A model generated the notes under the pieces. It did no database searches. It saw only the letters and a list, made by a program, of their open reading frames with translations, and was not told where the DNA came from. Below are positions 15,370-37,334 of a DNA stretch of 37,334 nucleotides, in pieces. Position numbers and translations under genes: made by a program. Location of the stretch: positions 1 through 37,334 of the forward strand of contig CALHBU010000248.1 of NCBI GenBank assembly GCA_937930655.1. The letters are read 5' to 3'. Each line of letters starts with the position of its first letter. Positions within the stretch are counted from its first letter, which is position 1. The DNA is from an uncultured Acidimicrobiales bacterium (GTDB lineage Bacteria; Actinomycetota; Acidimicrobiia; Acidimicrobiales; SZUA-35).

Positions 15370-15777
15370 TCAGCCTAGATGGCCAAGCGAAGCGCCGAGG
15401 AACAGGATGACCAGGGCGGAGACGGCGCCGACGGCTCCGGTGAGTGCAACCACTGCCCGCTTCTCGCTTTGGCTATGGGTGAAGGCCGAAAAGCCGGCAA
15501 CGACGACCAGCAGAATCTTGATGCCGAGTGTGGCGTTGTAGCCAGAGGGCAACTGATCGGGCCCGGCCAGCAAGTTCCAGATGCCGGTGATGAACGCCAA
15601 GCCGAAGGCCGGCCACGCCACCTTGGCGAAGCCATTGGCTGCGGCCTTCGTTGCCTCGGGGCCGATCTTGCGTAGTCCGGGAACCATGCCGGCTAGAACA
15701 AACTGCCCGCCGACCCAAACGGAGGCGGCCAGGAGATGAAGGAAGATGCGGATGGTGTCAAGCGTTGGGCTAAGCAC
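15370..15777 (-). CDS. Small four-TM membrane protein, CopD-like
   Basis: FLHLLAASVWVGGQ, ITGIWN and LGIKILLV pattern typical of CopD-like four-helix membrane proteins. Confidence 0.75.
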   Translation of the reverse strand: MLSPTLDTIRIFLHLLAASVWVGGQFVLAGMVPGLRKIGPEATKAAANGFAKVAWPAFGLAFITGIWNLLAGPDQLPSGYNATLGIKILLVVVAGFSAFTHSQSEKRAVVALTGAVGAVSALVILFLGASLGHLG

Positions 15778-15839
15778 AATGTCGATTCGGTTGAGGCGAC
15801 TGGATGTTTGATTGGAAGTCTGGCTGGATGGCTGGTCGG

Positions 15840-24988: not shown

Positions 24989-26353
24989 GTGTCTCGGCGG
25001 CGGGCTCTCGTCCTGGCGCTACTTGTTGTTGCCGGCTGTGGTCGGTCCGACCCGCGTCTTGAAGGGCCGCTACCAACACTTCCTGTTTCGCCAGTCGAAC
25101 TGGTTGAGGTGACCACTGATGTCGGCGTCACAGCTGAGTCCATCAGCATCGGCATCCTCGCCGACTTGTCCGGCCCCCGGGCGATCATCGATGTGCCCGT
25201 GGTGGACGCCTACAAGTTGTACTGGGCTGAGGCGAATCGGGCCGGTGGCGTTGGCGGGCGGGTTGTAGAGCTGACCGTTATCGATACCAGTTCCGATATC
25301 GAGGCCCACCGGGCGGGCTATCGAGAACTGGTAGACGATGTCGGCGTGGTGGCCATCGGCTATTCGTCGGGTACCGGAACTACCCAGGCGGTCGGTCCAC
25401 TGGCCAGCACCGATGGACTGTTGGTGGTGTCCGGTTCCCGCCACTCGTCGATGATTAGCTACGACGCCGTTCTGGCCCCGCACACCAGCCTTTGTGTAGA
25501 GGCCATGAATGCCGTCTCCTGGCTCGACCAACGGGTCCGAGCTGTCACCGATGATCAGATCCGGTTGGCCATTGTTGGCGACGGCACCCCTGACGCCGAC
25601 GATGCGGTGGCCGGAGCCCGGCTGGCGGCAGTGGCACTCGACCTGCAGGTGGTTATCGACCACACCGGTACCGGCGACTTGGCTGCCCGTCTGGAGAACT
25701 CGAACGCCACCGGCGTTTTCGCTGCCGGCGAGCCGGGCTTTCTCGAGATCGCCATGTCCAGCTCTACCCAGGCTGGCACCGCGGATGGCTCACCGGCTAC
25801 CTGGACCGGTAGTTCGCTCAACCTTGACGTGTACGGCTCGGGTTCGGCCTCAGCATCAGCTCTGATCAGTGAGAACTATTTCCATCCATGGTCCCTCTCA
25901 GTATTGGGATCAGGCAGCGACGATGTCGACCGAGTCGCCGAGGTCCTGGCCGCGAGCACACCATTGGTGTCCAACTGGTCGTTGACGGGCTGGGCCAGCG
26001 CATCTTTGTTGTTCGAAGCACTCGACGGGGCTGCGTCAAGGGGGGACATGCAGCGGCAAACCGTCCTGGAGGTGGCCGGTTCCAACCGGACTCGCTTCGA
26101 TGGGCTGGCCCCGGACCAGACATGGCGTGGTAATCGAGCTGACCGAATAGTCAGAGAGACGGTGATCTACGACGTGGTTGATTGGGGCCAGCCAGAGGTC
26201 GTCCAGTTGGTCCCGGCCGGGGGTCCGGATCCGTCCGAGGTAGCGGTCTCTCATCGGCAGGAAGGGGCGTGCCTTGCCCCACCGGTACCCCCGCCAGCAA
26301 CCTCACCCACAGAAACCACGACACCGGATACTGTCCCTTCGTCGGACGAGTAG
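24989..26353 (+). CDS. Solute-binding lipoprotein (branched-chain amino acid/Liv-type fold), orphan
   Basis: Lipobox VVAGC, GVTAESISIGILADLSGP and ANRAGGVGGRVVEL..IDT; P/T-rich tail; no permease genes nearby. Confidence 0.82.
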   Translation: MSRRRALVLALLVVAGCGRSDPRLEGPLPTLPVSPVELVEVTTDVGVTAESISIGILADLSGPRAIIDVPVVDAYKLYWAEANRAGGVGGRVVELTVIDTSSDIEAHRAGYRELVDDVGVVAIGYSSGTGTTQAVGPLASTDGLLVVSGSRHSSMISYDAVLAPHTSLCVEAMNAVSWLDQRVRAVTDDQIRLAIVGDGTPDADDAVAGARLAAVALDLQVVIDHTGTGDLAARLENSNATGVFAAGEPGFLEIAMSSSTQAGTADGSPATWTGSSLNLDVYGSGSASASALISENYFHPWSLSVLGSGSDDVDRVAEVLAASTPLVSNWSLTGWASASLLFEALDGAASRGDMQRQTVLEVAGSNRTRFDGLAPDQTWRGNRADRIVRETVIYDVVDWGQPEVVQLVPAGGPDPSEVAVSHRQEGACLAPPVPPPATSPTETTTPDTVPSSDE

Positions 26354-26395
26354 CCCCTGTCGATAGCCCAGTTTCCGCCCTCAGCTTGGCACTCT

Positions 26396-26422
26396 TCAGG
26401 TTTCGGGCCGGTTGGCCGATGG
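26396..26422 (+). promoter_or_regulatory. Putative sigma28 (FliA/WhiG)-type promoter of the GGDEF-EAL gene
   Basis: TCAG (26396-26399)-N15-GCCGATGG (26415-26422)-N6-GTG (26429). Confidence 0.6.
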
Positions 26423-26428
26423 AACGAA

Positions 26429-29020
26429 GTGCGTTACGCGGCTCTTACTCGTGTGCTACCCGGTTCTGTCTTACTTTTGGGCCTGTTGCTGACACTGATC
26501 GTCAGCACCAACGTGGCGGCCAGGAACGAGCGAGCCACTGCCCAGGCCAGGCAGGCCGCCAACACGGTGGTCCTGACCCATGCCAGAGCATCTGAGTCAG
26601 AGCTTCACAACGTTGCTGATGAAGTCGACCGACTGGCTCACTCCCTTCGGGTACTGACCGAGATCGGGGACATCGACATTGAGTCAGCCGTTACTGCTGA
26701 AGTCGACGCACAGCTGTCGCTCGAGCGGCGTTCAGCGATTCTTGCCGTCTTCGTTCAGTCGGGCGTCGATCAGGTCATGATTTTCAGCGACGATTCGATC
26801 GCAGGCAGAGACTTCCCGTTGGTGCCAGCCGGACTGGACTACATCGATGGCGGTATCTGGAACGGCTCGCTCTCGTACGGAATCGACACCAGCAGCCGGG
26901 CGGGCGCCGAGATCGTGATCTTGGTCGATCGAGATGCTCTGCAGGCGGCGATCCAACCATCTTTTGCTGACGGCTTCAGCGCCACCCTTTACGATCTTCC
27001 TGGGCAGGAATCGGGCAGCGAGACGGCAGTTCATGACGGTCTCGAGTCCATCGGCGGTGTTCTGTGGGACCGTCAAGCCGGGAGCGCCGTCTCGCGGCAG
27101 GACGCCGAAGTTCTCGGCCACTCAGTGTCGATCGAGGTAGAGGCCGCGAACGGTGCACTTTGGCTACCGTCGTCAGGGGTGGCGTGGAGCGTGCCGTTGT
27201 TTGGGACGCTGTTATCCCTGCTGGCTGCTGCTGCCGCCATGGTGACCGTCCGTGTTGTTTCCCGGGCCGAACTGGAGCGTGACGAGGCCGACCTCGCTCG
27301 CGATGCCGCTGCCGCGAGATTCCGGGCCAGCTTCGAGCGAGCGCCCATCGGCGTTATCGAGCTGGATGCCAACGGCACCATTGTCGCCGCCAACCCTCGT
27401 TTCGCCAGCCAACTTGGATTCGCAGCCGAAGAATTGCTCGAGACCGAGCTGCTGGATCTGGTCGACGGAGAGGATCGTCCCGAGGCTCAAGAGCTTCTTT
27501 GGGCCATGTTGGAGGGCGAAACTGATGGAGAGCAGACCGAACGTCGCTATCGGAACCGAAATGGGGGCGCCGTCTGGGTTCGAGAGTCCATGAGCGTTTT
27601 GGTCTCCGAAGACGGCTCCCACCATGTGCTGCTCCAGGCCGAGGACGTCAGCGACGAACGACGAGCAAGGGCCGAACTTCACCGCAAAGCGCTCTTTGAC
27701 GACCTCACCGGGCTTCCCAACCGTTCCAATCTCATTGCCAGGGTTAACCGGGCGCTCGACGCCGATCGGCCCGCCGACGATGTTCTGGCTCTGATGTTCG
27801 TAGATCTCGACAAGTTCAAGAACGTGAACGACACACTTGGCCATGAAGCTGGCGACATCCTGCTCATAGAGGTAGCTGAACGCCTCCGACGAGCGTGTCG
27901 AGCCACTGACACCGTCGCTCGTCTGGGCGGCGATGAGTTCGTGGTGCTGTGCGAGGGGCTACCCAACGACGAGGTCGCAAGCCAGACCGCAGAACGATTC
28001 GCAGAGACGCTACGCGAGCCGATGTTCATTCGCGATGTTGAGGTGCCGGTGAGCGCTTCCATTGGTCTTGTCGTTGAAAGCGGGGCCGCCAGCTCCAGCG
28101 ATCTTCTGCGCCAAGCTGATCAGGCCATGTATCGGGCCAAGACGTCGGGCCGGAATCAACTGATCCGCTTCGATATCGACGAGGGCACCCGACGTCGTAC
28201 CGACGAACCGGATACCGTCAGTGCCCACGATCTTCGGTCTGCTATAGACAACGGGCAGCTCCTAGTCCATTACCAACCGGTTGTTGATACCGGAACACTC
28301 GAGGTTGTTGGGTGCGATGCCTTTATTCGATGGGCCCACACCGAGCGAGGCCTTCTAACCGCCGGCGAGTTTCTTCCTGCCGTAGAGAAACACGGCATGG
28401 TCGAGGAACTCGACCGTTTGGCCCTGGCCGAGGGTGTTGCGACTCTGGCCGAGTGGGCCGAAGACGAGCGTTCGTCGTGGTACATGATCTTCAACCTTTC
28501 GCCGGTGAACTACGACAATCGAGAGTTCGCGGGCTCTGTTGCCACACTGATAGAGGAGGCAGGGGTTGACCCATCTCGAGTCATTCTCGAGCGGCACGAG
28601 ACCTCGTTCCTCACTCAAACTCCCACTGCTGTCATCGCCACACGGGAGCTCCGTTCACTTGGCGTGCGGATATCGCTCGATCACTTTGGCACCGGCTCGT
28701 CAACGCTGAACGAAATGTCGATGCTCGAGTTCGATGTTCTGAAGATCGACCGCTCGTTCGTTCGAGATTCCGGCCATCAGCAGACCTACGTTCTTGAGGC
28801 ACTCGGCAATATGGCTGACGCGCTCGACCTGAAGGTAATTGCCGAAGGGATCGAAACCGAGACCGAACTCCGGGTGGTCCAAAAAGCAGGACTGGCCTTC
28901 GCCCAGGGCTACCTCCTCGGCAAGCCGGTGAGTGAGGCTCAGTTCGTGGCCGGCGACTTTGGGAGAGCGGAGAGCGTTGCTGCTCTCAGCTCCTCGGAGC
29001 CGACAGGCTTGGTCAAGTAG
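26429..29020 (+). CDS. Membrane-anchored PAS-GGDEF-EAL protein (likely diguanylate cyclase with degenerate EAL)
   Basis: Two TM helices around an extracellular region, PAS/PAC (FRASFERAPIG...WVRES), DDLTGLPNR, DLDKFKNVNDTLGH.AGD, RATD-x5-GGDEF; EAL domain reading DAFIRW, LDHFGTG, LKIDRSF, AEGIET and QGY. Confidence 0.95.
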   Translation: MRYAALTRVLPGSVLLLGLLLTLIVSTNVAARNERATAQARQAANTVVLTHARASESELHNVADEVDRLAHSLRVLTEIGDIDIESAVTAEVDAQLSLERRSAILAVFVQSGVDQVMIFSDDSIAGRDFPLVPAGLDYIDGGIWNGSLSYGIDTSSRAGAEIVILVDRDALQAAIQPSFADGFSATLYDLPGQESGSETAVHDGLESIGGVLWDRQAGSAVSRQDAEVLGHSVSIEVEAANGALWLPSSGVAWSVPLFGTLLSLLAAAAAMVTVRVVSRAELERDEADLARDAAAARFRASFERAPIGVIELDANGTIVAANPRFASQLGFAAEELLETELLDLVDGEDRPEAQELLWAMLEGETDGEQTERRYRNRNGGAVWVRESMSVLVSEDGSHHVLLQAEDVSDERRARAELHRKALFDDLTGLPNRSNLIARVNRALDADRPADDVLALMFVDLDKFKNVNDTLGHEAGDILLIEVAERLRRACRATDTVARLGGDEFVVLCEGLPNDEVASQTAERFAETLREPMFIRDVEVPVSASIGLVVESGAASSSDLLRQADQAMYRAKTSGRNQLIRFDIDEGTRRRTDEPDTVSAHDLRSAIDNGQLLVHYQPVVDTGTLEVVGCDAFIRWAHTERGLLTAGEFLPAVEKHGMVEELDRLALAEGVATLAEWAEDERSSWYMIFNLSPVNYDNREFAGSVATLIEEAGVDPSRVILERHETSFLTQTPTAVIATRELRSLGVRISLDHFGTGSSTLNEMSMLEFDVLKIDRSFVRDSGHQQTYVLEALGNMADALDLKVIAEGIETETELRVVQKAGLAFAQGYLLGKPVSEAQFVAGDFGRAESVAALSSSEPTGLVK

Positions 29021-29331
29021 CCGTCCAACCCGTTCACCCGAGGATCGCCGAAGTCTTCTCGGCGGAGCTCGCCGGTGAGAAGGACGAAGGGTGGCCGCGA
29101 GGCGGGGAGTGCCTCGAGCAGGTCTAGGCCGCTTCCTCCCGGCATGATGTAGTCACACAGGATGAGCGCAAGCGCAGGTCGGTACATCGCCAGCGCAGCT
29201 TCAGCGGAGTCGGCTTCCTCAGTAGCGAAGCCTTGTTGCTGAAGCATGTGACATAGGACTAGCCGTGACACCGGGTCGTCATCAACGACCAGAACCGTGA
29301 TGTCGGCTTTTTCGACTCGGTCGCTCCCCAT
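28939..29331 (-). CDS. Single-domain response regulator receiver (CheY-like); start may be 29343 or 29346
   Basis: VLVVDDD, ILCDYIMPGGSG, LLTG and YLTKP all intact; its 3' end overlaps the convergent GGDEF-EAL gene. Confidence 0.9.
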   Translation of the reverse strand: MGSDRVEKADITVLVVDDDPVSRLVLCHMLQQQGFATEEADSAEAALAMYRPALALILCDYIMPGGSGLDLLEALPASRPPFVLLTGELRREDFGDPRVNGLDGYLTKPVGSEELRAATLSALPKSPATN

Positions 29332-29339
29332 TGCGCCGC

Positions 29340-29681
29340 TCACCACTGAGCGAGGAGGTCGTCCATGGATGTGGCGAAGGTGAAGACCTTGTCGAAGCTG
29401 GTGAGTTCGAGGATTCGCTTGGCGTCAGCCGACCGCGGCCAGACCAGACGAAGATCGCCTCCTGCTGCTCTGGCGTCCTTCATGCCCTTGACCAGAGCGG
29501 CCAGCCCGGCTGAGTCGAGAAACTCCAGTTCGCTGAGATCGATGGCGAGGTTCACCTGACCGTCCTGAAGATGGTCGTTGAACAGCTGCCGCAATTCGGT
29601 TGCCTCCAGGGCGTCAAGACGGCCTGACAAACGAATGGTCAGAATGTCGATCTCATGGCTTCCGGTGCGAACGTCCATCAT
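29340..29681 (-). CDS. STAS-domain anti-sigma factor antagonist (RsbV/SpoIIAA-like)
   Basis: LSGRLDA, IDLSELEFLDSAGLAALV (phospho-acceptor Ser), GGDLRL and ILELT.FDKVF. Confidence 0.93.
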   Translation of the reverse strand: MMDVRTGSHEIDILTIRLSGRLDALEATELRQLFNDHLQDGQVNLAIDLSELEFLDSAGLAALVKGMKDARAAGGDLRLVWPRSADAKRILELTSFDKVFTFATSMDDLLAQW

Positions 29682-29687
29682 GGTTGT

Positions 29688-29715
29688 TGATCGACCACGT
29701 TCAGCCGCTTCTTTA
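29688..29715 (-). promoter_or_regulatory. Putative sigma28-type leaderless promoter of the distal STAS gene
   Basis: TAAA (29715-29712)-N16-GTCGATCA (29695-29688)-N6-ATG (29681). Confidence 0.65.
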
Positions 29716-29718
29716 GCG

Positions 29719-30126
29719 CTAGTGGAACGCGGTTGAGTCGAGCGAAAACCGCAGCGTCCAACGGTTCTGATCATCCTGTCGGCGATAGTCGATTGCGGTG
29801 GCGATCTGCTCGATGATCATGAGCCCATACCCCCGCACCTGTGGTTCGGTCGGTGGAGAAACCTGGTCTGCCTCGAAGGGCAGACCGGAGTCGGTCATCA
29901 CCACAACGAGTTCGTCGCCATCGATATCGGCGCTGAGCTCTAGACCCGACGACTTGGCATGATCAATGCTGTTGTTGGCCAACTCGTGCACCGCCAGCTC
30001 AATTTGGCCCCGGACAGGTGCCGCCACCTCGTCCGGCAACGGGGCGAGACGTTCTGAGAGCCACGGCCCGATAGTCCGGAGTGCCAGGTGGTTCGATTCC
30101 AGAAGAAGGACGCTGGAGTCAGCCAT
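29719..30126 (-). CDS. RsbW/SpoIIAB-like anti-sigma factor serine kinase (HATPase_c_2)
   Basis: IELAVHELANNSIDHA, DSGLPF and RGYGLMIIEQI; overlaps the phosphatase stop. Confidence 0.9.
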   Translation of the reverse strand: MADSSVLLLESNHLALRTIGPWLSERLAPLPDEVAAPVRGQIELAVHELANNSIDHAKSSGLELSADIDGDELVVVMTDSGLPFEADQVSPPTEPQVRGYGLMIIEQIATAIDYRRQDDQNRWTLRFSLDSTAFH

Positions 30127-31339
30127 GAGCGTCAGTCTCCACTGCGGTCGCCCGGATGATCAGGAGTGTGCGGTCATCAGTTTGTTCAGCGGTGCCTGCG
30201 TAGGATTCGAGCCGCTCGAACACCAGACCACCGAGTTCGGTTGCGGGAAGATTCGAGTCGACGAGAAGATCAAGCATTCGTTGTTCGCCCCACATCTGAC
30301 CGGCAGGATCCTCTTGCTCAGTGAAGCCATCCGAACTTACGACGAGGCGGGAGCCAGGAGGTGCAGCTAACACTGTGTCCTCGACGGGACCAAGATCGGA
30401 CAGCGGGAGGACGCCGATCGGAGGAACGACCGAGTTTATGGAACGGGGGCCGCTGTCGTCGATGTAGAAGATCGGTCCATGACCGGCGCTGGCGATGGAG
30501 AGCTGTCGAGAACCGGCATCGTAGGAGCCCGCCATAAGCGTCACGAAGAGGCCGGCGTCGGCTAGGTACTTGTGCACCCAGTTGTCAATGGTCTCGAGAA
30601 CAGCGCCGGGACCTGCAGTGCCCGCTGACTGGAAGGCGGCCGTTGCTGCCGAGATCACCGTTGTCATCATCAACGCGGCCGGTAGTCCCTTTCCCGAGAC
30701 ATCTCCGGCAACGAAGTGCAGGACATCGTCCAGCACCGCGAAGGTGAAGAGATCGCCTCCCGCCGCTCGGGCCGGGTCAGAGCGGGCGAAGACGTCGACA
30801 CCGGGTAACTCCGGTCGCCAGGTCGGAAGCGCCAGCTGCGCAAGTTCCGATGCGGTGTCGTGATCCCGCCTGGCAACTGCGCCTTCCAGCGTCTCGTGAT
30901 GGTGGCGGGAGGTTTGTACTGCGCCCAACGCCATGCTGGCGATAGCGGTCAGCAGCTTGTGGTCGGCTGTGCCGAACGTTCGGTTGTCCCGGTGGGCATA
31001 GAGGCTACCGGTGAGCCTCCCGTTGCTCACCTCGACGCTGGTCCTGTTCGGTGCCCTGCCAACGGGTGCCCTGTCGTGGCTCTCGTCGTCGTGACGTCGC
31101 ATCAGTTGATCGGTCGAATGGACCTGGTCACCATCGACGCTGAAGGTCAGGAGGTCAGCGGCCAGGAGATCGCGGGCCTTTTCGAGGATGGCGGCAACGG
31201 CCTCCGACTCGTCCAGCGACTCGGTGGTGATCGAAGCCAACTGGTACAGCACCAGCAATTGCTCGTTGACCTCCACCAGTGCTGCTGTCAGCGACTGCAT
31301 CGGGTCGACATGCGTGGTCATGTCTGACAGTTGGCTCAC
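30119..31339 (-). CDS. SpoIIE/RsbU-type PP2C phosphatase with a GAF-like N-terminal region
   Basis: AGGDLF, GDVSGKGLPAAL, FVTL, SAGH, SDGFTE and DDRT; GTGA coupling with the upstream STAS gene. Confidence 0.93.
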   Translation of the reverse strand: MSQLSDMTTHVDPMQSLTAALVEVNEQLLVLYQLASITTESLDESEAVAAILEKARDLLAADLLTFSVDGDQVHSTDQLMRRHDDESHDRAPVGRAPNRTSVEVSNGRLTGSLYAHRDNRTFGTADHKLLTAIASMALGAVQTSRHHHETLEGAVARRDHDTASELAQLALPTWRPELPGVDVFARSDPARAAGGDLFTFAVLDDVLHFVAGDVSGKGLPAALMMTTVISAATAAFQSAGTAGPGAVLETIDNWVHKYLADAGLFVTLMAGSYDAGSRQLSIASAGHGPIFYIDDSGPRSINSVVPPIGVLPLSDLGPVEDTVLAAPPGSRLVVSSDGFTEQEDPAGQMWGEQRMLDLLVDSNLPATELGGLVFERLESYAGTAEQTDDRTLLIIRATAVETDAHG

Positions 31340-31704
31340 TCGATGGTGAAGGCGAGATCGAGCCTTGTTAGCTCGAGAATCACTCGAACCGGGTCAGAAG
31401 GAGAGACCAGGATGAGGTCACCGTCTCGTTCCCGACAGTGCTTCATTCCTCTGACCAGTTCGGCCAGGGCCGTCGAATCGATGAATTCAACCTCGGCGAG
31501 AGAGACCAAGACCCGGGTGGCCGCGCCGCTGCCCGATCCGTCGAGGATCTGGCCCAGGATGGCTCGGAAGGTGTCTACTTCATGGGCGTCGAAGCGTCCG
31601 GCGAGCCGCAGTTCTACGGCATGGCTGGCGGTTGACTGCTCGGATGGAAGTGGGAGTTGCGTGATGTCCACCGGATGACCTCGGATCGACTGCGGGGTAT
31701 TCAC
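31336..31704 (-). CDS. Second STAS-domain anti-sigma factor antagonist
   Basis: LAGRFDA, VSLAEVEFIDSTALAELV, DGDLIL and VILELTRLD. Confidence 0.92.
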   Translation of the reverse strand: MNTPQSIRGHPVDITQLPLPSEQSTASHAVELRLAGRFDAHEVDTFRAILGQILDGSGSGAATRVLVSLAEVEFIDSTALAELVRGMKHCRERDGDLILVSPSDPVRVILELTRLDLAFTIE

Positions 31705-31709
31705 GTGTC

Positions 31710-31736
31710 CAGTCGGCAGCTACGGTCGCGTGTTGA
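31710..31736 (-). promoter_or_regulatory. Putative sigma28-type leaderless promoter of the STAS-PP2C-RsbW unit
   Basis: TCAA (31736-31733)-N15-GCCGACTG (31717-31710)-N5-GTG (31704). Confidence 0.6.
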
Positions 31737-31746
31737 AGTAGATCGC

Positions 31747-32547
31747 TCAGCGCTGGTCGATGCGAGGGTGATTGTCCGACCCATATCGACCTCGTAGATC
31801 GTTCCAACGAATGATGGCCAGATCCCGCAGGAACTCAACTGCCACCTTGCCAGCATCGACCTTGGACCCCGGTGCATCTATCCAGGTGACGGGTACCTCG
31901 GTCGTCCGGAATCCGAATTTTCGGGCCAGGTACAGGATCTCCAAGTCGAAGGAGAATTCATCGATCACCTGCCGCCTGAACAGACGCTCAGCAGCGTCGG
32001 CGGTGAACATTTTGAAACCACACTGGGTGTCGGAAACCGGCAGTCGGAACAGGCCCTTGACCAACAAACTGAGTCCACCACTGAACACTTTGCGGGACAG
32101 AGATTTGTTGGCAACGTCGGCCCCGTCGGCGGCTCGGGAGCCGACAACAACGTCGTAGCCGTTTTCCAGTTCGGCTACCAGCGCCTCGAACTGTTCGATG
32201 GGCGTTGACTGATCAGCGTCGGCGAAGAGGATGACCGAGCCTCGGGCCTGGAGCACGCCTCGCCGGACTGCGCTGCCCTTGCCGCCGTTCTGTTCGGCCA
32301 GCAGCAGGCGGAGGTTGACCAGCTCCAGATCTCTAACCAGTTCAGCGGTTGTATCGGTCGAGCCATCGTCGGCCACGATCAGTTCCCACGGCTCGCCCAG
32401 CGAACTCATATGAGTGGCAATGGCGCCGATGGTCGGAACGATCCGCCATTCTTCGTTGTATGCCGGTATGACAACCGAATAGAGGGGCTCAACCTCGAGC
32501 GGGACCTCGGCCCACACTCGGTAGGCGTCCAGGGTTCTGTTGGTCAT
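31747..32547 (-). CDS. GT2 polyprenyl/dolichyl-phosphate glycosyltransferase-like protein
   Basis: SVVIPAYNE, DDGSTD, NGGKGSAVRRG, FADAD, GSR, DTQCGFKMF, FSFDLEIL and EVPV.W. Confidence 0.93.
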   Translation of the reverse strand: MTNRTLDAYRVWAEVPLEVEPLYSVVIPAYNEEWRIVPTIGAIATHMSSLGEPWELIVADDGSTDTTAELVRDLELVNLRLLLAEQNGGKGSAVRRGVLQARGSVILFADADQSTPIEQFEALVAELENGYDVVVGSRAADGADVANKSLSRKVFSGGLSLLVKGLFRLPVSDTQCGFKMFTADAAERLFRRQVIDEFSFDLEILYLARKFGFRTTEVPVTWIDAPGSKVDAGKVAVEFLRDLAIIRWNDLRGRYGSDNHPRIDQR

Positions 32548-33887
32548 GTCTGTTCTCCCGGAGTGTGGGTGAGATGGCTGCCCGCAACCGCGGCGAGAAG
32601 CAACGCCATAGCGATCACTTGCATGCGAATGAGATCATCGGTCGCATTGCGGCCGAAGAAGAGCAGGACGGTCTGGAACACGCCACCGGCTAGCAACACC
32701 AGGGCTTCTCGAATCCGGCCTGTTGACAGGTGGTGGCTGACGATCAGGTTGGCCATAGCGAACATGGCAGTAGCAAAGGCGTACCAGGCGAGCGGACTCG
32801 AAACACCGGCAAACTCCGGCCCGAAGACTCGTCCGAGCACGGTGCCGCCCAGGAAATAGGCCCCACCGACGAAGCATGCTCCCATGACCGCCACAACAGC
32901 CAGGCCGCTGTGGAGAAGGCCATCGGTGCTCTCGCCTCGTTCTTTTCGCTGGGCGGCCGCAGGGAACAACGTGGTGGCCACCGACCATGAAAGAAAGAAG
33001 ACCGCCCGGCCAACGAGCGCAATAGCCGCGTAGACACCAGCCGTCTCGGGTTCGAGGAAGCGTTTGGCCATCAGCACGTCGCCGTTGTTGATGATGATTT
33101 GGCCCAACAGCAGAAGAGCAACCGGGAGGGTGTACGAAACGAGCTCGGCTTTGGCGTCGGCTGACATGGTGGGCTTTGGATCCCCACTCCGAGGGCGAAG
33201 CACACCTGTTCTTCTCATTCGGCTGGTAATGAGTTGCACGTGGCCCCACGTGACGATGAACGACGCGGTCAAACCGATGGTCGCTCCGATAACACCGAAG
33301 CCGGCGGCGACCAGGCCGATGCCAAGGGCAACCCGAGCCACCATCTCGACCACGAATGTCCAGGCCAATGGTTGGAACCGCAGCAGCCCCTGGAGGACTC
33401 CGCGGCCCACCGCCTGGGCTAGGTAGAACGGCATACCGAAGCCGAGAATGGCGAACGGCCACGCCGACGCAGAGTTGAAGAACTCGCTCCACCATTGAGA
33501 GCCGAGCATCAAGGCGGCCGCAACCGCGGTGCCGGCAAGGATTGCCATTCGCTGCAGTTTCTGCGCCAGCGCGACCGTGGCCGACGGATCGTTGTTGACC
33601 GCATTGATTCCCGCGAAACGGGCCGCCATCAACTGAAGACTGATAGCGATAGCGGTGACCAACAGCATGATGGTGACCATCAGGTTGGCGTCGGCGAACT
33701 CAGCAGGCGTCAGCCATCGACCAAGAAAAACGTTGAGGAGGTAGTTGCCGGCGTTGGCGACAAGCATCGCCAACCCGAGCGCAGCACCACCCGAGACCAA
33801 CGCCTTGCTATCGCCTCCCGCCGGTGAGTCGCTGGCGGCGGCCGCTTGCTGGCTCGGCCTCGAGCGGGTCCGTAGATCCGTCGTCAT
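32544..33887 (-). CDS. Wzx/MOP-type oligosaccharide flippase family protein
   Basis: About 12 TM helices with ANAGNYLLNVFLGRWLTPAEFAD, RGVLQG, NGDVLMAKRF, AGVYAAIALVGR and LFP. ATG 33887 lies 4 nt after the GT4 stop. Confidence 0.88.
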   Translation of the reverse strand: MTTDLRTRSRPSQQAAAASDSPAGGDSKALVSGGAALGLAMLVANAGNYLLNVFLGRWLTPAEFADANLMVTIMLLVTAIAISLQLMAARFAGINAVNNDPSATVALAQKLQRMAILAGTAVAAALMLGSQWWSEFFNSASAWPFAILGFGMPFYLAQAVGRGVLQGLLRFQPLAWTFVVEMVARVALGIGLVAAGFGVIGATIGLTASFIVTWGHVQLITSRMRRTGVLRPRSGDPKPTMSADAKAELVSYTLPVALLLLGQIIINNGDVLMAKRFLEPETAGVYAAIALVGRAVFFLSWSVATTLFPAAAQRKERGESTDGLLHSGLAVVAVMGACFVGGAYFLGGTVLGRVFGPEFAGVSSPLAWYAFATAMFAMANLIVSHHLSTGRIREALVLLAGGVFQTVLLFFGRNATDDLIRMQVIAMALLLAAVAGSHLTHTPGEQT

Positions 33888-33891
33888 CGAT

Positions 33892-35097
33892 TCACGAGTC
33901 AGACGACAGTCGCCCGAGGTGCATGAGATGCCAATCAATCACTTCGGCCATTGGAATCCCGGTTGCTGCCAGATAGTTACGCTCGCCATGTTCAGCATTG
34001 AGGGTGGGGTCGTCCAGAAGTTTGGCGAGCGCATCGGCCAGGCTCATTGCGCTACCCGGTTCGAAATACTGTCCGATGAACCCTTCTTCCTCGATCACCT
34101 CGACGAAGTCTCCAATTGCCGGGAGCACAGCACTCCGGCCATAGGAACCAGCCTGATGAAGCACGCCCGAACTGCCGGTTGTTGACGTGTAGGGGAAGGC
34201 GGTGACCGTGGCGTTTCCGAACAAGCCGGGAACATCGTCTTCCTCCACGTAGCCGGTGAAGGTGACGTTGTCCATGTCCTGACAGCCTTCTTCGACCGAC
34301 GCTAGGTACCCCTTTGAATTGGGGCTATCAGTTCCGGCGATCACCAATTCAAGATCGGTGTAGCCCCGGCCGGCGAGCTCTCTAACGGCATCGACCAGCA
34401 CATCGACCGTCTTGTAGGTGCCCCACTTACCGAAGGCGAGAATCTGCCGTGGCCCCTCGTCGGGCGGTCCGAACTGGGGCTCGTCGATTTCTTCAAAACT
34501 GCCGTGTGGGGCCAGCAGCGCATTCTCGGCTCCGTAGCTCGACCGGAGAAACTCGACGTAGCGGGGAATGGTCAGCGCCACATAGTCGGTCTTGAGAATG
34601 GCGCGGGTGAGTGCCCGACCGGCGAGTTCCATCCCTTTCGCCACCAGCTTTGAGTCGGCGAATCCCGCATCTTGCATGTCGACGTTGTCGGCCAGGTTAT
34701 GAAGAATCACGGCCGTCGTGACGCCGGCTCGTTTGAGCAGGGCCGGAATCAGGAGGCCAAGGCCACCGGCAACTTTGCTGTCCCCAAAAGTGGCGAACTG
34801 AAGATTTACCAACACCGCATCGACATTGGCCTTCTTGACTGCTCGGACCAGACGAAACGGATTGGTCAGTGCGTTGAACTCCCACGAAACCACCGCGTCG
34901 ACCTTGGCGGCAGCCGTGGGGTCAGCCAAGGTGATCGGTGGGCCGGCATCGGTCTCATCGGCAAAGACGACCACGCTGTCGACCGATTGGTTGGAAGCCA
35001 AATGGTTGACCAGGTGGAAGCCGAACTCGTTCAGGCTGTTTCGGCCCGGAGGAAAGGCGGTGATGACGCCGATCCGACGTGGTGTAGCTCTGTTCAT
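33892..35097 (-). CDS. GT4 (GT-B fold) glycosyltransferase
   Basis: GVITAFPP, APHG, ILAFGKWGTYK, LVIAG, FTGYVEE, FPY...GSSGVLHQA and SLADAL. Confidence 0.92.
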   Translation of the reverse strand: MNRATPRRIGVITAFPPGRNSLNEFGFHLVNHLASNQSVDSVVVFADETDAGPPITLADPTAAAKVDAVVSWEFNALTNPFRLVRAVKKANVDAVLVNLQFATFGDSKVAGGLGLLIPALLKRAGVTTAVILHNLADNVDMQDAGFADSKLVAKGMELAGRALTRAILKTDYVALTIPRYVEFLRSSYGAENALLAPHGSFEEIDEPQFGPPDEGPRQILAFGKWGTYKTVDVLVDAVRELAGRGYTDLELVIAGTDSPNSKGYLASVEEGCQDMDNVTFTGYVEEDDVPGLFGNATVTAFPYTSTTGSSGVLHQAGSYGRSAVLPAIGDFVEVIEEEGFIGQYFEPGSAMSLADALAKLLDDPTLNAEHGERNYLAATGIPMAEVIDWHLMHLGRLSSDS

Positions 35098-35150
35098 TGT
35101 TCTCTGTTCCGACGTCTTGTGCGCCAGCCGTTGTCGACCCGCTGCTAGAG

Positions 35151-35178
35151 GTGTCGGCAGGTCTTGCTACCTGCTTGA
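35151..35178 (-). promoter_or_regulatory. Putative sigma28-type promoter of the GT4-flippase-GT2 unit, with a palindrome in the spacer
   Basis: TCAA (35178-35175)-N16-GCCGACAC (35158-35151); GCAGGT-N6-ACCTGC at 35157-35174. Confidence 0.6.
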
Positions 35179-35207
35179 ACAGTGATCTCTGACGAACAGC
35201 CGAAGGG

Positions 35208-36104
35208 TCACCGGTTGGTTGGTAGGACGAGGGTCGCAACGGTGTGCCCACAGCCGTCGTTGGTGATGGTGAGCCTGCCATCGAGTGCCTCGGCCAGTTG
35301 TTGGCACAAACCGAGGCCCAGTCCGAGGCCTTCAGAAATTCGAGCCGCACTTGCATCAAGCATGGTGAAGTCGTCAAACAAGCCTTCGATGCGGTCGGCA
35401 TCGATGCCGGGTCCGGCATCGGTTATCTCAAGCCGCAGTTCCTCCCCCGAGATTGAGATGTCGAGGTTCACCGTTCCTCGATCGCCGTGGGTCACCGCGT
35501 TGTCGAGCAACTCATCCAGAATCTGAAGAACGCGACGTTCATCGAGGTTCACGACCCGTGCCTCATGAGAGGAGCTCACCGCCAGCAGATGACCGGTACG
35601 CATGGCCGTCAGTTGCCACCGTTTGCGAATCGAATCGGCGAGCTCACCTAGCTCGACAGGCTCAAGCTCTGGCGTGACATTGCCACTACCGAGTTCTACT
35701 AAATCGAGGAGGCGGGTGAGTAGTTGTCGGAGCCGGTCAGCTGAACGTGTAGCTGTCGCCAGATAGTCGGCAGCCTGCGTCCCTTCGACATGGGGTGTGA
35801 GAAGTTCCAGCATGCCGAGAAGTCCATTGAGGGGGGTGCGGGTTTCGTGACTCAAGGTCGACAGAAAACGTTCTCGGCTGCTGGAGGCGACGGCTAACTC
35901 TCGAAGCGTTTGTTCAAGGTCGGCGGTGCGTTCAGCTACCCGTCGATCGAGCTCCTGATTCACCAGCCACAGTTCCCTCATTCCGCGGTCGGCGATCTCT
36001 TCGGCCTCCCGCCGGGCCCTCCGTTCGCGTTCAAGCCGCCGCTCCAAGCGAGCGATGCTACGGGCAGCGTCGGCTGCTTGATCAGGGCTCTCGGTACTGG
36101 TCAT
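35208..36104 (-). CDS. Soluble H-NOX-associated histidine kinase (coiled coil-HisKA-HATPase)
   Basis: N-terminal RLERRLERERRARREAEEIA coiled coil, H-box FLSTLSHETRTPLNG, N-box ELLDNAVTH, DAGPGI, LFDDF and GLGLGL; no TM segment; starts 7 nt after the H-NOX stop. Confidence 0.93.
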   Translation of the reverse strand: MTSTESPDQAADAARSIARLERRLERERRARREAEEIADRGMRELWLVNQELDRRVAERTADLEQTLRELAVASSSRERFLSTLSHETRTPLNGLLGMLELLTPHVEGTQAADYLATATRSADRLRQLLTRLLDLVELGSGNVTPELEPVELGELADSIRKRWQLTAMRTGHLLAVSSSHEARVVNLDERRVLQILDELLDNAVTHGDRGTVNLDISISGEELRLEITDAGPGIDADRIEGLFDDFTMLDASAARISEGLGLGLGLCQQLAEALDGRLTITNDGCGHTVATLVLPTNR

Positions 36105-36111
36105 GCCATCG

Positions 36112-36660
36112 CTAGTCAGCGATCGCCATTTTCACGGCTCGTACGTCGAAGACGGTGATCTCCTCACCATGGCCGCTCACGATGCGTACGTCGACGTCCT
36201 CGCCGAAACGCTGGCCGGCACCGAGGATGAGGCCTTCGGCCAGGACTCCGAGCCGTCGACTCGATCGATAGGTGATTCTGAGTACATCGTCTGGCCGATC
36301 TTCGAATTCGAACTCCGGTGGCTTGGCATCGGGGTGAAGCTTTAGAACCTCGGGATGAATGATGTCGTTGACTCGTCGGAGGAAGTCGTGAGTGCCAGCA
36401 GCTTCGTCCACCAGTTCGGGGTACCGGTCGGCCAGATGGGGAAAGGCATGTTGGCCGAGGGTCCGCACCAGTTCGTCAGGCCCAAGCCCTGTCATGGGGC
36501 AGGCAGCACCGACCAGGGCTGTCAGGTCGGAATCCGGATAGCTGCCCAAGGAGGTGTAGTGGCCGTCGATCTCGGCGGCCTCCAAGAGGTCGTCCCACAC
36601 ATCCTCTGAGTACAAACCAACGACTGCTTCTTCAACTGCGTTGAAAATGACGCCCTTCAT
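36112..36660 (-). CDS. hnoX: H-NOX (heme nitric oxide/oxygen-binding) sensor protein
   Basis: Start MKGVIF after an AAGGAG RBS; YTSLGSYPD; proximal His in NDIIHPEV with Pro 13 residues later; YxSxR motif YRSSR; GLILG. Confidence 0.95.
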   Translation of the reverse strand: MKGVIFNAVEEAVVGLYSEDVWDDLLEAAEIDGHYTSLGSYPDSDLTALVGAACPMTGLGPDELVRTLGQHAFPHLADRYPELVDEAAGTHDFLRRVNDIIHPEVLKLHPDAKPPEFEFEDRPDDVLRITYRSSRRLGVLAEGLILGAGQRFGEDVDVRIVSGHGEEITVFDVRAVKMAIAD

Positions 36661-36713
36661 TCTGACTCCTTGGATGCTGGGACCAGCACGGTGGTGGCCT
36701 TGTGTCGGTGTTC

Positions 36714-36741
36714 CTGTCGGCTGTTCATTGATTGTCTGTGA
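36714..36741 (-). promoter_or_regulatory. Putative sigma28-type promoter of the hnoX-kinase unit
   Basis: TCAC (36741-36738)-N16-GCCGACAG (36721-36714), 53 nt before ATG 36660; the -35 element lies in the 3' end of the upstream gene. Confidence 0.45.
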
Positions 36742-37334
36742 GTAGACGCTCACGGCGGTCAGTCAGGCTGGTAGCGGCCGAGTCGGCCATGACGTCCAAT
36801 TCAGCGGCCAGAGTCTGGAGTTCGCCAGGATCTGCAGTCGTGGTCCGACTAGCCATCTCAAGGGCGGCACAGTTCTGAGCGAGATCGGTTGCTCCCAGCA
36901 TCAATGCCGTTGATTTGAGTGTGTGGGCCGAGCGGGAGATGGTCACGTGGTCGTCGTCGCCAAGAGCCTCGTGGATGACGGTTCGGTGCCGGGTGAGCTC
37001 GTCGAGGAACGTGCTGATCACCGTTGCGACCACCGACCGGTCGCCCAGGTCGGCTACCAGTTGATCGATGGTCGCATCGTTTATCGACCCCGTGCTCTCG
37101 GCGCCGGATGGCTCAGATCCCCACTTGCTGATCATGTCGCCGAGATCGGTCAGAGAAATAGGTTTGGCCAGATAGTCGTTCATGCCGGCGTCGAGGCAGG
37201 CCTCCCGGTCGCCGGAGGTAGCGCTGGCGGTCGTGGCGATGATCACCATCGGGTTGTCTCCGGTCTCGTTGCGCCTGATACGGCGGGTGGTTTCGAGACC
37301 GTCTATGCCCGGCATGTGCCAGTCCATCAACACC
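36725..37334 (-). CDS. C-terminal receiver + Hpt part of a probable hybrid histidine kinase (5' end outside the window)
   Basis: LMDWHMPGIDG, TTASA, CLDAGMNDYLAKP and Hpt motif AHTLKSTALMLGA. Confidence 0.92.
   Translation of the reverse strand, partial: VLMDWHMPGIDGLETTRRIRRNETGDNPMVIIATTASATSGDREACLDAGMNDYLAKPISLTDLGDMISKWGSEPSGAESTGSINDATIDQLVADLGDRSVVATVISTFLDELTRHRTVIHEALGDDDHVTISRSAHTLKSTALMLGATDLAQNCAALEMASRTTTADPGELQTLAAELDVMADSAATSLTDRRERLLTDNQ

Follow-up and report, generated by a model that had tools for sequence, protein, structure and literature searches.

Putative FliA/WhiG (sigma-28)-type promoters at a locus of H-NOX, polysaccharide, partner-switching and c-di-GMP genes in an uncultured Acidimicrobiales bacterium

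Five two-block motifs found in the window, i.e., the whole stretch of 37,334 nt of DNA that was analysed, are real and go beyond chance. They are probably promoters of the FliA/WhiG (sigma-28) type serving a predicted co-regulated set of genes; conservation in related genomes argues strongly for sites 1, 2 and 4, and only in part for sites 3 and 5. An earlier sequence-only reading of this DNA had proposed one regulon of five units. The sigma-28-type assignment is supported, while the number of units has to be reduced: three conserved transcription units are predicted for the cluster (first gene, GT4 and STAS2), and the promoter of the first gene lies outside the window.

The genes and sites are collected in Table 1, and the Pfam matches agree with the gene content that had been read from the sequence. 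The source genome is an Acidimicrobiales MAG from an uncultured actinobacterium and is 81% complete. The HNOB gene is followed 7 nt on by the gene of its histidine kinase, a pair that is retained in nine relatives, and the hnoX start (ATG 36660) has an AAGGAG ribosome site. Typical elements of partner switching occur together, namely two STAS domains (PF01740), an RsbW-type domain (PF13581) and a PP2C phosphatase (PF07228), whose first ~200 aa are without a Pfam match. The receiver gene and the cyclase gene share 82 nt at the 3' end of the former.

Table 1. Genes and promoter sites of the locus (window positions unless a contig is named; gene starts are the output of a crude gene finder made for this analysis)
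Feature	Position and layout	Strand	Basis or remark
PAS-GGDEF-EAL protein, 863 aa (cyclase)	26429..29020	+	Pfam
Stand-alone response-regulator receiver, last gene of the STAS2 unit	28939..29346	-	Pfam; syntenic, 9 relatives
STAS2, anti-sigma-antagonist-like	29340..29681	-	Pfam; start ATG 29681
RsbW-like HATPase_c_2 kinase/anti-sigma-like protein	29719..30126	-	Pfam
PP2C (SpoIIE-type) phosphatase	30119..31339	-	Pfam
STAS1	31336..31704	-	Pfam; start GTG 31704
Exopolysaccharide-type block, 3 genes	31747..35097	-	Pfam; syntenic, 9 relatives
GT2	31747-32547	-	Pfam
Polysaccharide flippase-type protein	32544-33938	-	Pfam
GT4/GT1	33892-35097	-	Pfam
Block of H-NOX (HNOB) and its histidine kinase	35208..36660	-	Pfam
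Histidine kinase of H-NOX	35208-36104	-	Pfam
H-NOX (HNOB) protein, hnoX	36112-36660	-	PF07700, 125.8 bits
Hybrid PAS-HisK-receiver-Hpt kinase, 3' part (receiver + Hpt), ends at contig edge	36725..37333	-	Pfam
Hybrid kinase, 5' half (first gene of the cluster)	contig C382:3-1199	-	contig C382 sequence
Site 1, PAS-GGDEF-EAL	TCAG 26396-26399, 15 nt, GCCGATGG 26415-26422, 6 nt, GTG 26429	+	read directly
Site 2, STAS2	TAAA 29715-29712, 16 nt, GTCGATCA 29695-29688, 6 nt, ATG 29681	-	read directly
Site 3, STAS1	TCAA 31736-31733, 15 nt, GCCGACTG 31717-31710, 5 nt, GTG 31704	-	read directly
Site 4, GT4	TCAA 35178-35175, 16 nt, GCCGACAC 35158-35151, 53 nt, ATG 35097	-	read directly
Site 5, hnoX	TCAC 36741-36738, 16 nt, GCCGACAG 36721-36714, 53 nt, ATG 36660	-	read directly
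First-gene promoter, contig C382	CTCAGT-N16-GTCGATAG, 7 nt 5' of hybrid kinase ATG	-	off window

Direct inspection places the five strings where they had been reported, 6, 6, 5, 53 and 53 nt 5' of their start codons. All are intergenic, at most 200 nt 5' of a start codon and oriented as their genes; the claim that each lies in a gap holds for every -10 box, but the -35 block of site 5 falls within the 3'-terminal codons of the ORF preceding it. The -10 block was compared with GCCGA, taking CGA as invariant and allowing at most one change within the first two bases. All five sites contain the CGA, in GCCGA at four of them and in GTCGA at site 2. The -35 block is T(A/C)AA at site 2 (TAAA) and at sites 3 and 4 (TCAA), and CTCA at site 5 in an alternative reading with a 17 nt spacer before GCCGACAG (36714..36742, minus strand); site 1 has TCAG/CTTCA, a variant seen repeatedly among the best sites of the genome. 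With their flanks, sites 1 to 4 read cTTCAg, cTAAAg, tTCAAc and tTCAAg. The spacer is 16 nt at sites 2 and 4, 17 nt at site 5 (from CTCA) and 15 nt at sites 1 and 3 (from the 4-mer), the published values being 16 nt for WhiG2 and 16-17 nt for WhiG1. The published WhiG2 search rule finds sites 2 and 4 and the CTCA-N17 rule finds site 5, but site 1 (TCAG at -35) and site 3 (N15, where the rule has N16) escape the published rule. Sites 1 and 2, each 6 nt 5' of the start codon, have a leaderless geometry. The TANNNT or GANNNT elements that had been ascribed to other promoters of the window can be recognised only loosely, with GANNNT at -12 in one gap and TANNNT at -35/-39 in two.

Genome-wide, TANNNT is the clear main -10 element, and next to it there is a separate, orientation-specific promoter class, cT(C/A)A-N15/16-G(C/T)CGA(T/C), often with a leaderless geometry of 6-7 nt to the start codon. 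Counted by its distance from start codons, G(C/T)CGA has its maximum at -15 (28 occurrences vs. a background of 11.7; Poisson P = 3.4e-5), and A is enriched 17-18 nt 5' of the box (18/38 and 20/38 sites), a -35 signal that is missing from 366 TANNNT promoters. A weight matrix was trained on 35 sites, all outside this contig, one of them being the first-gene promoter of this locus on contig C382; the spacer was 15 nt in 9/35 and 16 nt in 26/35. The sequence-only reading had suggested looking for enrichment of the motif and for a sigma-28-family factor in the genome, and both were found. Among non-training sites, a score of at least 5 was reached in 38/1722 cases toward a gene vs. 3/1055 away from it (Fisher P = 7.6e-6), and in 216/62,137 sites (about 0.35%) of coding DNA. 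With GCCGA required exactly, the published search rule gave 60 sites oriented toward genes vs. 13 in the opposite direction. In 19/73 sites with a score of at least 4.5, there are 4-9 nt between the end of the box and the predicted start.

As for the sigma factor, a WhiG equivalog and a second paralogue of the FliA/WhiG family are encoded in the genome, along with a homologue of RsiG, the c-di-GMP-dependent anti-sigma. Among solved structures, the first (C50; NF004935, 351.5 bits, cut-off 343) is closest to WhiG in the S. venezuelae complex with RsiG (E = 2.9e-92), and the paralogue (C174; TIGR02479, 195.9 bits, cut-off 189.6) likewise has WhiG and FliA as its best matches; for both proteins, E. 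coli and Aquifex FliA come next. The RsiG homologue (C160:5943-6476) matches chain T of 6pfj over residues 13-176 (E = 4.4e-18) and contains two E(X)3S(X)2R(X)3Q/H(X)3D motifs (twin-motif), the second with H replacing Q. Hence a WhiG orthologue and a motif-bearing RsiG are present in one genome. No WhiG-type site was found 5' of whiG or rsiG themselves.

The predicted targets of the class are enriched for c-di-GMP genes. A site precedes 7/21 GGDEF/EAL genes vs. 84/3937 genes overall (Fisher P = 1.4e-7). Genes downstream of the 40 top-scoring sites beyond the window include five c-di-GMP genes (EAL, HAMP-GGDEF-EAL, two GGDEF-EAL and PilZ), sensor kinase genes and others of polysaccharide or envelope type.

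Nine relatives have the 11-gene cluster in synteny, and four promoters (cyclase, GT4, STAS2 and the off-window first gene) are kept in relatives with diverged spacers. The STAS2 promoter is found in 10/10 genomes as CTcAAG-N-GTCGA, 6-7 nt 5' of the ATG, its spacer being unconserved. The GT4 promoter reads TCAA/TCAG/TAAA-N16-G(C/T)CGA in 7/10 genomes and occurs as the variants ACCGATAA and TTCGATCC in two more; among the ten genomes compared it is absent from G061. An equivalent of the first-gene promoter is present in 7/8 relatives having upstream DNA, and G014 has in addition a ACCGACAG variant. For the cyclase, a box scoring at least 3.9 lies 6-7 nt 5' of an in-frame start in 12/17 orthologues (window included), whose alignments begin at query residue 1-2. 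The cyclase had been counted as part of the locus; it does share the promoter type, but it stands outside the syntenic cluster of the relatives and is, from this comparison, a predicted conserved same-type target in its own right.

One could suppose that all five sites are chance matches, since the pattern is loose and GCCGAC and GTCGAC are frequent codon pairs in GC-rich DNA; this is strongly disfavoured and in our opinion very improbable. Coding DNA does contain about 4-5 copies of G(C/T)CGA(C/T) per kb on each strand, and the loose pattern TMAV-N15/16-GYCGAY, which was defined after the sites had been seen, has 16 matches in the window (both strands), 11 of them intragenic; in correct orientation it occurs in 48/1642 genome gaps of 25-150 nt. 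However, the textbook consensus TAAA-N15/16-GCCGATAA was fixed before scoring, and against it (maximum 12) the gaps of sites 1-5 score 8, 10, 8, 9 and 8, compared with 5-7 in the other nine scored gaps of the window. A score of at least 8 is found in 292/1642 genome gaps (25-150 nt), and a sum of at least 43 for five gaps has P = 1.1e-4 (200,000 length-matched random draws from the same genome). The off-contig matrix gives sites 1, 2, 3, 4 and 5 scores of 5.99, 5.14, 4.59, 1.31 and 3.76, which puts sites 1-3 within the top ~0.1-0.6% of coding-DNA sites; the low value of site 4, and that of site 5, count against the promoter reading. Single matrix matches are weak evidence because the matrix also matches in coding DNA of the relatives' loci (22/746 antisense sites at a score of at least 3.5). 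Against chance also speaks that box and -35 are kept with diverged spacers in up to 10/10 genomes, with no sign that the conserved blocks are coding sequence or mis-assembly. It is improbable, if less so, that the motif is real but read by another factor (an ECF sigma, some other sigma, or a regulator that binds DNA at the promoter), its sigma-28 likeness being coincidental. The motif is assigned to WhiG by sequence comparison, two ECF sigma genes are among the predicted targets, and further sigma factors may be unseen because the genome is only 81% complete. Nevertheless, each block of the motif agrees with both actinobacterial WhiG consensus forms in the literature, as does the 16 nt spacer of 26/35 training sites, the box lies where leaderless genes require a -10 element and shares its register with TANNNT, and the spectrum of DGC/PDE targets is the one predicted for WhiG elsewhere. 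Moreover, the FliA_WhiG-model search of the genome returned only the two sigma-28 paralogues above the cut-off, the third match being RpoD/SigA-like and the rest weak.

A closer competitor, which we regard as a serious possibility falling somewhat short of even, is that only sites 1, 2 and 4 and the off-window first-gene promoter work, sites 3 and 5 being chance matches inside two operons, and that there are therefore three units and not five. This proposal overlaps the sigma-28-type reading on the conserved sites and differs from it only at sites 3 and 5. A box comparable to site 3 exists in 3/10 genomes (window, G099 and G081) and is missing in 7/10; at hnoX, a box scoring at least 3.7 within 100 nt upstream exists in 4/10, at differing positions, and is missing in 6/10. 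In relatives GT2 and STAS1 adjoin or overlap. Yet the background of control regions at a score of at least 3.7 is about 1-2/60, over which 3/10 and 4/10 have binomial P values of 0.004 and 2e-4, both rough because the genomes are related and not independent. The matrix score of site 3 and the near-identical box kept by G099, among the closest relatives, also speak for this site, as does the lack of a ribosome site 5' of the STAS1 GTG 31704. With this start codon, the N-terminus of STAS1 aligns to relatives from residues 1-5. Under the sigma-28-type reading, sites 3 and 5 would be internal promoters that vary between lineages, chance matches being less likely.

The nearest known system is actinobacterial WhiG-RsiG, for which the consensus sequences are T(A/C)AA-N16-GCCGATAA (WhiG2) and CTCA-N16-17-GCCGAACT (WhiG1), and DGC/PDE genes are described as the most widespread predicted WhiG targets in the available text of the preprint (bioRxiv 10.64898/2026.01.14.699351). 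In the available text of PMC8325347, 5/12 TSS-backed WhiG promoters of Rubrobacter radiotolerans lie 5' of DGC/PDE genes, and twin-motif RsiG is given for 3/4 Acidimicrobiales species. The present case shares the sigma family, the presence of an RsiG that carries two c-di-GMP motifs, the prominence of DGC/PDE genes among the predicted targets and, leaving aside the 15 nt spacers of sites 1 and 3, the two-block consensus T(A/C)AA or CTCA-N16-17-GCCGA. It differs in its host, Acidimicrobiales, a lineage unnamed in the preprint main text (bioRxiv 10.64898/2026.01.14.699351), and in its targets (H-NOX phosphorelay, polysaccharide genes and partner-switching module), since H-NOX, STAS and polysaccharide have no occurrence in the preprint text available. 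Many sites are leaderless in geometry, and "leaderless" is absent from the available text of both sources (bioRxiv 10.64898/2026.01.14.699351; PMC8325347). No flagellin gene was found in the 81%-complete genome. With about 50 sites reaching a score of at least 5, the predicted regulon is large compared with that of S. venezuelae WhiG, which reportedly has three ChIP-seq targets.

Other systems resemble parts of the locus. Flagellar sigma-28 (FliA/SigD) late promoters, TAAA-N15-GCCGATAA, whose consensus served in the sequence-only reading, have the same -10 CGA core and spacer, but the targets here are signalling and envelope genes. In Shewanella, Vibrio and Legionella, H-NOX/HnoK pairs link nitric-oxide signals with c-di-GMP and biofilm. 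Here too the HNOB gene adjoins a histidine kinase gene, with receiver-Hpt, stand-alone receiver and GGDEF-EAL nearby; unlike those cases, the host is an actinobacterium, and polysaccharide and partner-switching genes with predicted sigma-28-type promoters are joined. In Bacillus SigB-type partner switching, RsbV, RsbW and RsbU act from an autoregulated operon. STAS, RsbW-like kinase and PP2C phosphatase are likewise adjacent here, with predicted alternative-sigma promoters, but the cluster is without a sigma gene, and the FliA_WhiG-model search of the genome showed no sigma of the SigB/F type.

Under the sigma-28-type reading, RNA polymerase with WhiG (or its paralogue) would start 6-8 nt past the box, so that sites 1, 2 and perhaps 3 would give leaderless mRNAs beginning at the start codon, and sites 4 and 5 leadered ones. 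At low c-di-GMP, RsiG would release WhiG and four outputs would be activated jointly, namely the H-NOX phosphorelay, the polysaccharide genes (GT4-flippase-GT2), the partner-switching module (STAS-PP2C-RsbW) along with STAS2 and its response regulator, and the PAS-GGDEF-EAL enzyme. The latter, together with six other box-bearing DGC/PDE genes, may feed back on c-di-GMP, since such genes are prominent targets. WhiG regulons with DGC/PDE genes are of a known kind; the lineage and the predicted H-NOX, EPS and partner-switching targets are new. Gas-sensor, sugar-coat and c-di-GMP genes would thereby, most likely, be tied into one set in this organism.

The five motifs of the locus stand at the positions, and in the exact wording, that the sequence-only reading had recorded, and their distances to the start codons (see the table) were confirmed by reading the sequence. 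That pattern was fitted post hoc, and the chance tests used here were chosen independent of it, with both the genes (3937) and their starts called by a purpose-made crude gene finder. When gaps of 25-150 nt were scored against the textbook consensus TAAA-N15/16-GCCGATAA (maximum 12), 292 of 1642 gaps genome-wide reached 8 or more; nine further gaps were scored in the window and gave 5-7, and a score sum equal to that of the five locus gaps was obtained from five length-matched random gaps with P = 1.1e-4. A weight matrix built from 35 sites outside this contig, one of them the promoter of the locus's own first gene, was applied to all 65,220 G(C/T)CGA sites in the genome. Among non-training sites in gaps, a score of at least 5 was found for 38 of 1722 directed toward a gene versus 3 of 1055 directed away, with about 0.35% in coding DNA; the proposed motif is thus enriched over background where it faces genes. 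The published search rule for actinobacterial WhiG promoters (bioRxiv 10.64898/2026.01.14.699351) is satisfied by the STAS2, GT4 and hnoX sites and, with an exact GCCGA, yields 60 matches toward genes versus 13 away genome-wide. It is unusual for a motif spotted by eye to survive such tests. A candidate sixth site, TCAA-N16-ACCGAATC, fits the published one-mismatch rule and precedes the GTG of an ORF whose CopD match is weak and sub-threshold.

Coordinates of the features, predicted promoters included, in the window and on other contigs of the same genome
Feature	Location	Strand	Distance to start (nt)	Consensus score	Matrix score
Cyclase promoter (site 1)	26396	+	6	8	5.99
STAS2 promoter (site 2)	29715	-	6	10	5.14
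STAS1 promoter (site 3)	31736	-	5	8	4.59
GT4 promoter (site 4)	35178	-	53	9	1.31
hnoX promoter (site 5)	36741	-	53	8	3.76
Candidate sixth site	15778-15811	-	6
ORF with weak CopD match	15370-15777
PAS-GGDEF-EAL gene (cyclase)	26429-29020	+
Co-directional gene string	37333 to 28939	-
Tail-to-tail overlap, cyclase and receiver genes (82 nt)	28939-29020
PP2C phosphatase, N-terminal ~200 residues	30740-31339	-
H-NOX gene	36112-36660	-
Hybrid PAS-HisK-receiver-Hpt kinase, 3' part (last window ORF)	36725-37334	-
Hybrid kinase, 5' half	G000:C382:3-1199
Second FliA/WhiG-family gene (L002, L193)	C174:11615-12616
RsiG homologue (L192)	C160:5943-6476

The genome as a whole is predicted to be strongly leaderless: of 2228 upstream regions, 366 have a TANNNT hexamer that starts 12 or 13 nt 5' of the predicted start codon, and no -35 signal accompanies it. 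G(C/T)CGA forms another, smaller peak at -15 from start codons (28 observed vs. 11.7 expected), and its sites carry A-rich positions 17-18 nt 5' of the box. These sites form a predicted promoter class distinct from TANNNT. The possibility that the boxes are merely GANNNT variants of the housekeeping -10 element was considered and rejected: the matrix columns of the class have no T at the last hexamer position, and the reading is also contradicted by the -35 signal, which is absent from the 366 TANNNT promoters. A scan of 26000-37334 for sigma-70-type promoters returned none vs. 2.0 expected; terminator-like sites in the same interval (nine vs. 7.6 expected) are uninformative on operon ends. 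A look-up of RNA runs for 26800-36790 gave none. Among 73 sites of the G(C/T)CGA class, no pattern linked the -35 type with the -10 type, and no sub-classes could be assigned to two sigma factors.

The window is one entire contig of a 3.9 Mb assembly in 464 contigs (81% complete). Its minus-strand genes form a single co-directional string which comprises, in order, the 3' part of a receiver-Hpt gene, H-NOX (HNOB), a histidine kinase, a GT4/GT1 glycosyltransferase, a polysaccharide flippase-type protein, a GT2 glycosyltransferase, STAS1, a SpoIIE-type PP2C phosphatase (its N-terminal part without Pfam match), an RsbW-like kinase, STAS2, and a stand-alone receiver. The cyclase gene converges on this string and overlaps the receiver gene tail to tail, so that the 3' ends of transcripts from two sigma-28-type promoters would be mutually antisense. 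The 5' half of the truncated hybrid kinase lies on contig C382, with 64% identity to the orthologue in the relative G099, and this contig very likely abuts the window. On it, the first gene of the locus has its own box, CTCAGT-N16-GTCGATAG, 7 nt 5' of the ATG.

Nine relatives, which belong to five other genera, share synteny across all 11 genes of the cluster, but PP2C and H-NOX queries did not find the cluster in the five genomes of the same genus; its distribution is therefore patchy and accessory-like. H-NOX homologues (loci L057-L085) occur in 32 of 88 family genomes, this one included. Across the ten cluster-bearing genomes, which are not independent of one another, the STAS2 promoter is present in all (CTcAAG, an unconserved spacer, and G(T/C)CGA 6-7 nt 5' of the ATG). 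The GT4 promoter has the form T(C/A)A(A/G)-N16-G(C/T)CGA in seven, the variants ACCGATAA and TTCGATCC in two, and is absent in one; in two genomes it is leaderless. A box is found 5' of STAS1 in three of the ten and within 100 nt upstream of hnoX in four, at differing positions. The hybrid kinase gene has its own box in seven of the eight relatives with upstream sequence, and G014 has a one-base variant. As controls, the six other gene junctions (60 regions) gave one match of at least 3.7 and one at 3.69, and the matrix background in the relatives' loci is about 3% at a score of 3.5. In relatives the cyclase is not adjacent to the cluster, and 12 of 17 orthologues, the one in the window included, have the box 6-7 nt 5' of an in-frame start. 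Matrix matches also recur at equivalent places within the GT4/flippase coding DNA of relatives (L053, L054, L055, L086, L087), namely CT(T/G)CAC-N16-GTCGATAT about 700-830 nt 5' of the flippase start and CCTGAT-N16-GTCGATGG about 205-250 nt 5' of GT2; these could be conserved codons or internal promoters, and the window holds no counterpart.

The proposal that the units form one regulon is supported, with two corrections: the conserved units of the cluster number three, and the cyclase, a putative member of the regulon, is independent of the cluster. The three predicted sigma-28-type units are hybrid kinase-hnoX-kinase, GT4 through RsbW, and STAS2-receiver. The sites 5' of hnoX and STAS1 may be lineage-variable internal promoters.

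A WhiG/FliA-like factor, postulated by the sequence-only reading to be encoded elsewhere, is indeed present in the genome. The gene for a WhiG equivalog (NF004935, 351.5 bits, cut-off 343) lies on contig C50, and the best solved match of its product is Streptomyces venezuelae WhiG in its RsiG complex. A further protein of the FliA/WhiG family, from contig C174, bears a C-terminal extension of about 60 aa that is highly conserved. This second protein was found in 87 of 87 searched family relatives (72-89% identity), which makes its co-distribution with the cluster uninformative. Contig C160 carries the gene for an RsiG homologue in which the c-di-GMP signature motif occurs twice. In the second motif H replaces the signature Q, and a GT4 gene lies directly downstream on the same strand. 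No sigma-28-type site was found 5' of whiG or rsiG; the second paralogue has a weak upstream site, CTCAAG-N16-GCCGAAAA (score 1.94). No flagellin was found in this 81% complete genome.

Among the best 40 sites outside the window, the predicted targets related to c-di-GMP are genes for EAL, HAMP-GGDEF-EAL, two GGDEF-EAL, and PilZ proteins. The same 40 include two AT3 acyltransferases, a GT4, a priming sugar transferase, two DUF4214 proteins, an SLT transglycosylase, an L,D-transpeptidase, four histidine-kinase or HATPase-type sensors, a dCache protein, an ECF sigma factor, some metabolic genes, and 12 genes without Pfam match. The following 20 sites add a GT2, an Alg14-like protein, an MBOAT, a sortase, a class A PBP, and a second ECF sigma factor, together with likely false matches such as IF-2. 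A site scoring at least 4 within 250 nt accompanies 7 of the 21 GGDEF/EAL genes in the genome; for the full set of 3937 genes the figure is 84 (Fisher P = 1.4e-7).

Since RsiG is present, the known RsiG-WhiG mechanism is the simplest explanation of how such promoters would be controlled. At high c-di-GMP, WhiG would be held by RsiG; at low c-di-GMP it would be free and the locus genes would be switched on, and the cyclase/phosphodiesterase genes would then feed back on c-di-GMP. Beyond the presence, conservation and enrichment of the motif, these are steps that we infer, and the acting factor may be either sigma-28 paralogue. A broader reading, unlikely to hold in its entirety, is that in non-flagellated Acidimicrobiales the sigma-28 family would have been recruited as master switch for a programme of surface and biofilm genes with at least 50 promoters, about one quarter of them leaderless. 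This programme would take in one third of the enzymes of c-di-GMP turnover, genes for polysaccharides and the wall, and the H-NOX gas-sensing phosphorelay. Under the same joint proposal, the second paralogue, universally conserved and with its conserved C-terminal tail, would have its missing anti-sigma system in STAS-PP2C-RsbW-STAS; of the two sigma-28 factors, one would be gated by gas sensing through RsbW and the other by c-di-GMP through RsiG, and the two would read overlapping promoters, with both loops autoregulated.

This kind of regulation is already known. The preprint describes the WhiG consensus forms and reports diguanylate cyclase and phosphodiesterase genes as the most widespread predicted WhiG targets (bioRxiv 10.64898/2026.01.14.699351). 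Another study describes TSS-backed WhiG promoters 5' of such genes in Rubrobacter and the occurrence of RsiG in Acidimicrobiales (PMC8325347). What is new here is the lineage, the H-NOX, polysaccharide and partner-switching targets, the leaderless geometry, and the predicted regulon size, none of which is named in the preprint's main text. No earlier description of an Acidimicrobiales WhiG regulon was found in the literature as available, the preprint's main text included.

If correct, this would be the first WhiG regulon map for the Acidimicrobiales, an abundant actinobacterial order of soils, sediments and wastewater with hardly any cultured members, and it would join three kinds of signalling, by a haem gas sensor, by c-di-GMP and by partner switching, together with polysaccharide production, under one sigma-factor family. 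The promoters of STAS2, GT4, the cyclase and the hybrid kinase, all conserved, are concrete, testable fragments for the questions of how the RsiG-WhiG switch came to be re-purposed outside sporulation and motility, and of whether a sigma-28 holoenzyme is able to produce leaderless mRNAs.
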